Sequence record: PZ195126.1
Origin: a phage
Direction: 5' to 3' (one strand)
DNA length: 3,285 bases
Positions 51 through 3,285 of the stretch are shown in pieces. A program made the translations under genes and the position numbers. Every line of letters starts with the position of its first letter. The stretch's first letter is position 1. The notes under the pieces are model-generated. The model was given only the letters and a program-made list of their open reading frames with translations, did not search any database and was not told the DNA's origin.

Positions 51-1223
51 ATGTTTCCGAAGTCAAATATCGACAGAAATTACAAGGTTAAACTTATTTC
101 TTACGATAAGAAAGGGAATCTTGTTTCCGACGACTCTTTTGAGCAAGTCGAAAACTATCTCTTTCAAAATCGTTCGAATACGTATAAACCCGGTTATCTC
201 CGTCGCGACTTTCGAAGACCTACTAACTTTTGGAACGGCTATCGCTGTTTCAATCAGCCAGTTGGTACTTTCACTCGGAAACTCTCTGATGGTGGGAGAC
301 AAGTAGCTGATTATGGTATTGTGAACCCTAATAAGTTCACTGCCAATAGTCAGCACTTGGGGGACAACATGGTAATTTACCCTGGTCCCTTCTCTATAAA
401 TATTGATCAGCGTGCTTCTGTTGAAGTCCTCAATAAACTTTCACAATCCAACCTCAATATTGGGGTTGCGATTGCTGAAGCTAAGATGACTGCTTCATTA
501 CTCGCTAAACAATCTATAGCTCTCATCAGAGCCTACACTGCCGCAAGGCGCGGAAATTGGCGAGAGGTGTTTTCACAACTCCTCATCTCCGAACACCGTT
601 TCAGAGCTCCCGCTAGGGATCTCGGAGGTCGATGGCTCGAACTGCAGTACGGCTGGTTACCCCTTATGAGCGATTTGAAAGCCGCATATGATTTGCTTAC
701 GCAAACCAAATTGCCCGCTTTCATGCCCTTGAGGGTTACCCGTACCGTTGGCGGAACGCATAATTACAAAGTGCGTAACGTCGAATCTGCAGGGGATACT
801 TGGTCCTATAGCGATCGTTTGTCGGTGAATTACCGAATATGGTATTTCATTTCCGATCCACGTCTCGCATGGGCTAGTTCCCTCGGGCTTCTTAACCCTT
901 TAGAAATCTTTTGGGAGAAGACGCCCTGGTCGTTCGTTGTTGACTGGTTCTTACCTGTCGGTAATCTTATAGAAGCCATGAGTAATCCTCTTGGCCTCGA
1001 TATTATTTCCGGCACGAAGACCTGGCAACTCGAATCAAAACTTAATGCGACGCTTCCGGCTTCGGGTTGGTTTGGAACTGCAAAGTTATCTGCATATGCG
1101 AAAGCATATGACAGATCTACTTTCTATTCCTTCCCTACTCCTTTGCCGTATGTGAAGTCTCCACTTAGTGGTCTTCATTTAGCGAATGCATTAGCCTTAA
1201 TCAACCAACGCCTGAAAAGGTAA
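51..1223 (+). CDS. mat: Maturation (A/assembly) protein, 390 aa
   Basis: 390-aa ORF with TAA stop at 1221-1223. The translation contains blocks I recognise from the MS2 A protein (e.g. [62 protein letters not shown]...ALALI.QRL). First gene in the canonical levivirus order, with SD upstream. Confidence 0.95.
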
Positions 1224-1239: not shown

Positions 1240-1632
1240 ATGGCAACTTTACGCAGTTTCGTACTCGTCGATAATGGCGGTACGGGGAATGTTACTGTCG
1301 TTCCTGTTAGCAATGCCAACGGCGTCGCTGAGTGGCTTTCTAATAACTCGCGCAGTCAAGCTTATCGCGTGACTGCCAGTTATCGTGCGTCAGGCGCGGA
1401 CAAGCGCAAATACACCATCAAACTCGAAGTGCCGAAAATCGTCACTCAAGTTGTAAATGGTGTTGAGCTGCCTGTCTCCGCATGGAAGGCTTATGCCTCT
1501 ATCGACCTGACCATCCCTATCTTTGCTGCAACCGACGATGTGACCGTTATTTCCAAGTCACTTGCCGGCCTGTTCAAAGTTGGGAACCCTATTGCCGATG
1601 CCATCTCCTCTCAGAGTGGCTTCTACGCGTAA
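1240..1632 (+). CDS. cp: Coat (capsid) protein, 130 aa including initiator Met
   Basis: ORF MATLRSFVLVDNGGTGNVTVVPVSNANGVAEWLSNNSRSQAYRV...GNPIADAISSQSGFYA is near-identical, from memory, to the phage GA coat protein and clearly homologous to MS2 coat (FVLVDNGGTG, ANGVAEW, SRSQAY, LTIPIFA, GNPI). TAA stop at 1630-1632. Confidence 0.97.
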   Translation: MATLRSFVLVDNGGTGNVTVVPVSNANGVAEWLSNNSRSQAYRVTASYRASGADKRKYTIKLEVPKIVTQVVNGVELPVSAWKAYASIDLTIPIFAATDDVTVISKSLAGLFKVGNPIADAISSQSGFYA

Positions 1633-1823
1633 TGGGTCTGAAAGCAAAACATAAGGAAAACCTATGTTCCGGTTCACAGAGATCGAAAAGACTCTATGTA
1701 TGGATCGCACTCGCGATTGTGCTGTCCGATTTCACGTCTATCTTCAGTCATTGGATTTGGGGTCTTCTGATCCTCATTCTCCGGACTTTGATGGACTTGC
1801 CTACCTTCGTGATGAATGTTTAA
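1632..1823 (+). CDS. L: Lysis protein (L), 63 aa, overlapping the coat stop and the replicase 5' end in a third reading frame
   Basis: ATG at 1632-1634 shares its A with the coat TAA stop (UAAUG). Product MGLKAKHKENLCSGSQRSKRLYVWIALAIVLSDFTSIFSHWIWGLLILILRTLMDLPTFVMNV has a basic N-terminus and a hydrophobic C-terminal segment containing an LS dipeptide, as in MS2-type L proteins. Position between coat and replicase matches the levivirus layout; 63 aa matches the GA lysis protein size as I recall it. Confidence 0.8.
   Translation: MGLKAKHKENLCSGSQRSKRLYVWIALAIVLSDFTSIFSHWIWGLLILILRTLMDLPTFVMNV
1648..1668 (+). promoter_or_regulatory. Coat-protein translational operator hairpin enclosing the replicase start codon
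   Basis: 5'-AACAUA-A-GG-AAAA-CC-UAUGUU-3': a 6-bp lower stem, one bulged A (1654), two G-C pairs, and a 4-nt loop AAAA (1657-1660). The replicase AUG (1664-1666) sits in the 3' arm. Architecture matches the MS2 operator ACAUGAGGAUUACCCAUGU (bulged purine, 2-bp upper stem, tetraloop). Confidence 0.8.
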
Positions 1824-3262
1824 CCAAACATCCTTCACTTGGAGACAGTAATTCGGACGCACGCCGTAAGGAATTGGCATATGCCAAACTTATGGATAGT
1901 GATCAAAGATGCAAAATCCAAAACAGTAACGGATACGACCACTCCCATATCGAGAGTGGCGTACTGAACGGTATACTCAAGACCGCTCAGGCCCTTGTGG
2001 CAAACTTACTTACGGGTTTTGAATCTCACTTCCTGAACGATTGTTCATTCTCCAATGGAGCCTCACAAGGGTTCAAGTTGCGGGATGCAGCGCCGTTTAA
2101 GAAGATCGCTGGGCAAGCAACCGTTACAGCTCCTGCTTATGACATTGCCGTGGCCGCCGTTAAAACGTGCGCGCCGTGGTATGCTTATATGCAGGAAACG
2201 TATGGCGACGAGACCAAATGGTTTCGTCGGGTGTACGGCAACGGTTTGTTTTCTGTTCCGAAGAACAACAAAATAGATCGGGCTGCCTGTAAGGAGCCTG
2301 ATATGAATATGTACCTTCAGAAAGGGGCGGGATCTTTTATAAGAAAACGCCTTCGTTCCGTCGGTATAGATCTTAACGATCAAACGTGCAATCAGGAATT
2401 AGCCCGACTTGGCAGCATCGATGGTTCACTCGCTACTATTGATCTTAGTAGTGCTAGTGATTCCATTTCTGACCGTCTCGTCTGGGATTTACTTCCACCG
2501 CACGTTTATTCATACCTCGCTCGTATCCGTTCGTCGTTCACTATGATCGACGGGCGTTTACATAAGTGGGGTCTATTTTCTACCATGGGTAACGGCTTTA
2601 CGTTCGAACTCGAGTCCATGATCTTTTGGGCTCTTAGCAAGAGTGTAATGCTGTCCATGGGTGTTACTGGCTCATTAGGCATCTACGGTGACGATATAAT
2701 CGTTCCTGTTGAATGTGCCCCGACCCTCCTTAAGGTATTATCCGCTGTGAACTTTCTTCCTAATCAGAAGAAAACATTCACAACAGGTTACTTTCGCGAG
2801 AGTTGCGGTGCTCATTTCTTTAAAGGTGCCGACATGAAACCTTTTTACTGCAAGCGGCCAATGGAAACCCTTCCCGATGTCATGTTGCTATGCAACAGGA
2901 TAAGAGGTTGGCAGACCGTTGGTGGAATGTCAGATCCGCGGCTCTTCCCGATTTGGAAGGAGTTTGCTGATATGATTCCGCCGAAGTTTAAGGGTGGATG
3001 TAACCTGGATCGCGACACTTACCTCGTTTCACCAGATAAACCTGGTGTCACATTGGTTCGTATTGCTAAGGTACGCTCTGGTTTTAACCACGCGTTCCCG
3101 TACGGTCATGAAAATGGCCGTTACGTCCATTGGTTACATATGGGATCGGGAGAAGTTCTCGAGACCATATCCTCCGCCAGGTTTAGGTGCAAACCTAACT
3201 CGGAATGGAGAACACAGATCCCTCTATTTCCTCAGGAATTAGAGGCCTGCGTTCTCTCCTGA
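1664..3262 (+). CDS. rep: RNA-dependent RNA polymerase (replicase beta subunit), 532 aa
   Basis: 532-aa ORF with TGA stop at 3260-3262. Contains the palm motif YGDDIIV (GDD at 2687-2695), an upstream acidic motif IDLSSASDS (D at 2441-2443) and an SxMGNGFTFELES motif (around 2579-2617). Size and position match levivirus replicases. Confidence 0.97.
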   Translation: MFRFTEIEKTLCMDRTRDCAVRFHVYLQSLDLGSSDPHSPDFDGLAYLRDECLTKHPSLGDSNSDARRKELAYAKLMDSDQRCKIQNSNGYDHSHIESGVLNGILKTAQALVANLLTGFESHFLNDCSFSNGASQGFKLRDAAPFKKIAGQATVTAPAYDIAVAAVKTCAPWYAYMQETYGDETKWFRRVYGNGLFSVPKNNKIDRAACKEPDMNMYLQKGAGSFIRKRLRSVGIDLNDQTCNQELARLGSIDGSLATIDLSSASDSISDRLVWDLLPPHVYSYLARIRSSFTMIDGRLHKWGLFSTMGNGFTFELESMIFWALSKSVMLSMGVTGSLGIYGDDIIVPVECAPTLLKVLSAVNFLPNQKKTFTTGYFRESCGAHFFKGADMKPFYCKRPMETLPDVMLLCNRIRGWQTVGGMSDPRLFPIWKEFADMIPPKFKGGCNLDRDTYLVSPDKPGVTLVRIAKVRSGFNHAFPYGHENGRYVHWLHMGSGEVLETISSARFRCKPNSEWRTQIPLFPQELEACVLS

Positions 3263-3285
3263 TNNNNNNNNGANNNCNCCNGACG
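3263..3285 (+). other. Start of the 3' untranslated region, mostly ambiguous bases (N)
   Basis: Sequence after the replicase stop is ctgatNNNNNNNNgaNNNcNccNgacg; the genuine 3' UTR (usually over 100 nt and ending in CCA in this family) is not present. Confidence 0.6.

Follow-up and report, generated by a model that had tools for sequence, protein, structure and literature searches.

The translation of the lysis gene of RNA coliphages has been studied most directly in phage GA. In a reporter study of this phage by Inokuchi and colleagues (PLoS One 2023, PMC9955659), the lysis gene start was joined to lacZ and preceded by the 3' part of the coat gene, and downstream expression was abolished when the coat AUG was changed to AUU and also when the UAAUG sequence at the end of the coat gene was changed to UAAua. 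The frame of the AUG was entered by 24.7% of the ribosomes coming from the upstream ORF, while the other frames were entered by 0.2-0.6% of them (PMC9955659). When ribosome recycling factor (RRF) was inactivated, ribosomes went on in all three frames, and it was only upon this inactivation that frames other than that of the AUG were in use (PMC9955659). Placing the AUG at 0-4 nt downstream of the UAA made little difference, and moving it upstream lowered expression (PMC9955659). In the downstream sequence of these published reporters, both the stem of the operator and the AUG of the replicase had been changed (PMC9955659, legend), so that the efficiency of 25% need not apply on native RNA, on which structure and the binding of coat protein may have an influence.

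An earlier study of GA (Inokuchi et al., EMBO J 2000), as it is cited in PMC9955659, concluded that the lysis gene, which is without a Shine-Dalgarno (SD) sequence, is translated strictly by ribosomes that have translated the coat gene. In the same cited account, deletion and substitution analyses revealed no sequence that permits coat-independent lysis expression, and initiation by free ribosomes was excluded. A general statement in PMC3561173 describes the lysis protein L as translationally coupled to the coat in all enterobacterial leviviruses.

We then compared these systems with the window, by which we mean the whole stretch of 3285 bases that was analysed. A Megablast search of phage records returned six records of full-length relatives, all of them group II F-specific RNA coliphages (Emesvirus japonicum), with the following identities to the window:

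BZ13 strain DL20: 95.8% identity, over 99% of the window
GA (records X03869 and NC_001426): 94.7% identity, over 99% of the window
DL10: 94.2% identity
T72: 85.7% identity
KU1: 85.4% identity

The match of MS2-type phages in the same search was confined to a 400-nt stretch of the replicase gene. The window contains four ORFs in the standard levivirus order:

51-1223, plus strand: maturation protein gene (Pfam Phage_mat-A, 211 bits)
1240-1632, plus strand: coat protein gene, 130 aa (Pfam Levi_coat, 132 bits)
1632-1823, plus strand: lysis protein L gene, 63 aa (Pfam PF11125, Phage_MS2_lysis, 30.3 bits)
1664-3262, plus strand: replicase beta-subunit gene, 532 aa (Pfam RNA_replicase_B, 730 bits)

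Group II leviviruses are characterised by a genome with genes for the maturation, coat, lysis and replicase proteins and by a high nucleotide identity to GA/BZ13 strains, and both features were found here; by its sequence, the window belongs to the GA-type (group II, Emesvirus japonicum) RNA coliphages and is securely placed as a strain of that species. An exact-sequence look-up found its coat protein, unchanged, in phage TL2 and in another BZ13-species isolate. The same look-up gave no exact entry for the L and maturation proteins in the collection searched, so that the window represents a GA-type strain outside the annotated phage records. The record is incomplete when compared with that of GA, being without about 85 nt of the 5' end and without the 3' UTR, and positions 3264-3285, directly after the replicase stop (3260-3262), hold N runs and ambiguous bases (nnnnnnnngannncnccngacg).

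The features around the end of the coat gene are these:

1630-1634, plus strand: UAAUG junction, made of the coat UAA (1630-1632) and the lysis AUG (1632-1634), with base 1632 common to both
1600-1620, plus strand: hairpin GCCA(U)CUC-CUCUCA-GAGUGGC, in predicted folds, just upstream of the junction
1648-1668, plus strand: replicase operator hairpin (putative coat-protein binding site), which holds the replicase AUG (fold of -4.9 kcal/mol, z -3.4)

Direct reading of the junction (...UAC GCG UAA UGG GUC...) agreed with the preliminary description, according to which the coat stop and the lysis start have one nucleotide in common. The replicase start, which had been located 30 nt downstream, is at 1664-1666, and this distance was approximately right, the distance between the A bases of the two AUGs being 32 nt and the gap between the codons 29 nt. 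The L frame is +2 relative to that of the coat gene, and the L gene shares 160 nt with the 5' end of the replicase gene. The UAAUG sequence was identical in all four GA-type genomes compared (the window, GA, DL20 and DL10), and the records of GA, DL20 and DL10 annotate it as the coat end and the lysis start. Between -27 and +36 of the junction, the window does not differ from GA at any base; when 88 nt upstream and 40 nt downstream are included, 123 of the 133 positions match, and the 10 substitutions are all located in the 88 nt upstream. The arrangement is already known, since it was annotated in the 1986 record of GA (Inokuchi et al. 1986 genome). The overlap of coat and lysis genes is a textbook junction, and its observation here is correct but ordinary and carries little weight as a discovery.

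The pairing of the 16S rRNA 3' end with the 25 nt in front of each start codon was calculated. The best anti-SD duplex of the L AUG was -2.7 kcal/mol, which about 55% of the 25-nt stretches of the window equal or exceed in binding, while those of the maturation, coat and replicase genes were -9.5, -6.1 and -6.2 kcal/mol, respectively, with proper spacing. The value for L is that of the genome background, and the 25 nt upstream of its AUG contain no SD sequence; the absence of a strong SD before the lysis AUG, as previously stated, was thus borne out by the difference between -2.7 kcal/mol and the -6.1 to -9.5 kcal/mol of the three other genes. The sole SD-like stretch before L is GAGUGG (1614-1619), which ends some 12 nt before the AUG and sits in the 3' arm of the predicted hairpin 1600-1620.

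Termination-reinitiation of the GA type, acting on a lysis gene without a ribosome-binding site of its own, is very probably the best explanation of this junction. Because the junction is base-identical to that of GA, we infer with high confidence, by analogy, that the same coat-dependent reinitiation would hold for this strain. The proposal that lysis translation depends on termination at the coat stop is likewise supported through GA, in which it has been demonstrated and with which the window is identical from -27 to +36; the reporter comparison suggested along with this proposal had already been carried out on GA. The window contains no sequence evidence that contradicts reinitiation, and on every feature that can be tested in a sequence it falls into the GA-type junction class.

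The L gene of MS2 is classically described as being under the control of a hairpin, and an account of this kind can also be given for the window. According to it, coat-translating ribosomes would melt a structure that hides the L AUG, composed of ACCC (1586-1589) paired with GGGU (1634-1637) and of the hairpin 1600-1620, and free 30S subunits would then initiate de novo. The predicted folds lend it some support, given that the consensus fold of six relatives pairs ACCC with GGGU behind the start codon, that the single-sequence fold pairs the UAAUG itself, and that the counterpart of the upstream hairpin in GA (1683-1707) was annotated by the depositors of that record as 'pot. stem loop structure; pot. 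function in lysis gene control'. However, there is no SD at L for the recruitment of free 30S subunits, and the folds of the junction region were no stabler than shuffled sequence (z -1.2 and -0.4), with no compensatory change at any pair. The hairpin 1600-1620 showed one-sided changes and two breaks in the relatives, with zero compensatory changes, so that this comparison speaks neither for it nor against it, and no compensatory pairs were found around the junction in six relatives, whose sequences are too similar to be informative. The authors of the GA analyses, in the account cited above, also found no sequence for coat-independent lysis expression and excluded free ribosomes. We consider de novo initiation after the melting of a masking structure to be very unlikely; a control of L by predicted structure is possible in general but unsupported. 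An Rfam scan of the window gave no RNA family at the junction itself. Position 1593 is a T in the window and a C in GA-type relatives (AUUGCC vs AUCGC), and with this strain-specific T1593 a pairing of UAUUGCCG (1590-1597) with CG.GUAAUG (1626-1634) becomes possible in the single-sequence fold; this predicted pairing would sequester the junction.

The L protein itself bears on two other readings of the junction, namely that L starts elsewhere and that the stop and the start are next to each other by chance. The match of the 63-aa product to Pfam PF11125 covers residues 6-53 and scores 30.3 bits, the gathering score cut-off of this family being 25 bits, and 59 of the 63 residues are identical to those of the L protein of GA. 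In 11 group II sequences, L is 63 or 64 aa long, conserved in length and stop, and nearly invariant. Upstream of 1632, the L frame of the window stays open through 55 codons, among them an ATG at 1482, from which an N-terminally extended protein of 113 aa (ORF 1482-1823), overlapping 150 nt of the coat gene, could be made. Against this start, the ATG at 1482 is without an SD (-2.8 kcal/mol) and the Pfam homology does not extend upstream of 1632 (it covers residues 56-103 of the 113-aa form). In GA, DL10, DL20 and the KU1-type relatives, moreover, the frame is closed 11-31 codons upstream and there is no in-frame upstream start; in GA, the stop is located 11 codons upstream of the L start, vs 55 open codons in the window. 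ATG 1482 was rejected as the L start by this comparison, and we regard the extended protein as highly improbable. Since the frame of the relatives is closed upstream without an in-frame start, the 113-aa ORF is, on the available sequences, a strain-specific accident. The lysis start at 1632 is confirmed, and the 113-aa ORF is excluded. This strain is the only one in which the frame is open so far upstream, and automatic ORF or gene callers might favour the longer form and mis-annotate L as a 113-aa protein.

The reading in which ORF 1632-1823 is unexpressed and was juxtaposed to the coat stop by chance agrees with the frequency of the TAATG pentamer, which is not unusual, with 4 copies observed in the window vs 3.6 expected. 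What is non-random about TAATG is its position, exactly at the coat stop and in frame with a conserved L ORF. Moreover, the ORF scores above the cut-off of the Pfam lysis family, its length and sequence are kept in the 11 group II sequences despite a DNA divergence of 15%, its frame is preserved by the 18-nt insertion of the KU1-type relatives, and the L of GA is an accepted lysis protein. Chance juxtaposition, to which we attach a negligible probability, is already refuted by this conservation and by the GA literature.

With GA-type termination-reinitiation, a ribosome finishing the coat gene would terminate at the UAA (1630-1632) and, once the peptide had been released and ribosome recycling factor had acted, would briefly stay on or beside the RNA. 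A fraction of the terminated ribosomes would then re-engage the AUG (1632-1634), two bases downstream, and these restarted ribosomes would read the 63-aa L in the +2 frame, on the way crossing the replicase operator hairpin and the first part of the replicase gene. Because only a fraction of the terminating ribosomes would re-engage the AUG, L synthesis would be a fixed, small fraction of coat synthesis, and lysis would be both limited and delayed.

The operator hairpin aligned to the Rfam MS2 operator at 1647-1667 with 18.1 bits, which is below the gathering score of 40, and this was the sole Rfam hit in the window. It keeps the bulged A, the stem and the 4-nt loop, the sequence of the loop being AAAA instead of AUUA. 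It was invariant in all the group II sequences compared, and the GA record annotates it as 'pot. binding site coat protein'. As built, the Rfam MS2 operator family misses group II operators. The base of the hairpin is located 16-17 nt after the L AUG, so that ribosomes translating L must unwind it almost at once. Judged from the general size of ribosome footprints, the leading edge of a ribosome positioned on the L AUG would be roughly at the base of the operator. We speculate that the coat-bound operator (1648-1668) could act as a barrier to post-termination ribosomes on native RNA, which we consider unlikely; if it did, reinitiation at the L AUG and the timing of lysis would rise or fall with the concentration of coat dimers late in infection. 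This close geometry between the operator and the L start is specific to GA-type phages, the L start of MS2 being about 68 nt from the operator.

KU1 and T72 are like the window in having a group II genome, the same L protein, the same operator and no SD. They differ from it at the junction, where the alignment showed an 18-nt insertion exactly between UAA and UG that is not present in the window. The start codon of L in this type is a UUG located 20 nt downstream of the first base of the stop, the protein has 64 aa, and 3 extra nt precede the operator relative to the window. This is the insertion reported by Groeneveld, Oudot and van Duin (1996, Virology 218:141). An L start which tolerates the loss of its AUG and the presence of 18 extra bases, and which never has an SD, fits the delivery of ribosomes by coat translation. 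At 1708-1724 of KU1, the insertion yields a perfect 7-bp inverted repeat, CUACGCC-UAA-GGCGUAG, with a fold of -12.6 kcal/mol, the 3-nt loop of which is the coat stop codon. This repeat is common to T72 and to the environmental KU1-type sequences described below, and a terminating ribosome would have to melt the predicted structure.

The 20-mer of the operator (ACATAAGGAAAACCTATGTT) was scanned through sequence collections and was found at only 10 loci, made up of five to six group II fragments from environmental contigs, one copy of GA and four chance matches. Four to five of the group II fragments are of the KU1 type with a UUG, and one has the insertion and an AUG start; the scan gave no further junction types beyond this one AUG variant. 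The variant is the metagenome contig OGVH01001890.1, which at 375-405 is of the KU1 type with the 18-nt insertion and the inverted repeat, but reads CAGUAAUGGG where KU1 has CAGCAUUGGG. This change restores an AUG and makes a second UAAUG, with a UAA that follows the coat stop by 18 nt in the frame of the coat gene. The form could be revertant-like or an intermediate of the KU1 insertion. The chance matches are exact copies of the 20-mer in four unrelated AT-rich DNA contigs (metagenome Ga0315913-15 and Ga0228711), with the same flanks in each. A levivirus origin of these four contigs was rejected, and they were taken to represent a chance match in one repeated environmental sequence.

Overlaps of the -1 and -4 types (UAAUG and AUGA) serve termination-reinitiation in bacterial operons and in other viruses, where ribosomes fresh from termination go on to translate the downstream ORF. 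The hypovirus CHV1, for example, has the same UAAUG pentanucleotide as the window (PMC2699510). The genes of these systems are unrelated to those of the window, and the eukaryotic viruses use a different translation apparatus, so that the likeness is in mechanism only.

Comparison of the window with MS2 showed that the L proteins are homologous (Pfam PF11125), and that the L gene of MS2 overlaps both the coat and the replicase genes in another frame. The L of MS2 is also coupled to coat translation (PMC3561173). Its start at 1678 is 50 nt inside a coat gene that runs to 1727, whereas the overlap in the window is 1 nt; the arrangement of the window had been called more compact than that of MS2, and this was correct. 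In MS2, ribosomes must reach a start that is upstream of the coat stop, while the window has its start 2 nt beyond the first base of the stop. GA is like the window in its gene order, its one-base overlap of stop and start, the absence of an SD, the 63-aa length of L and the 32 nt to the replicase AUG, and it is unlike the window in the 10 substitutions of the 88 nt upstream and in 4 amino-acid differences in L. As far as these sequences indicate, the L gene of the window is homologous to that of MS2, and the geometry of its start is of the GA type and neither of the MS2 nor of the KU1 type.
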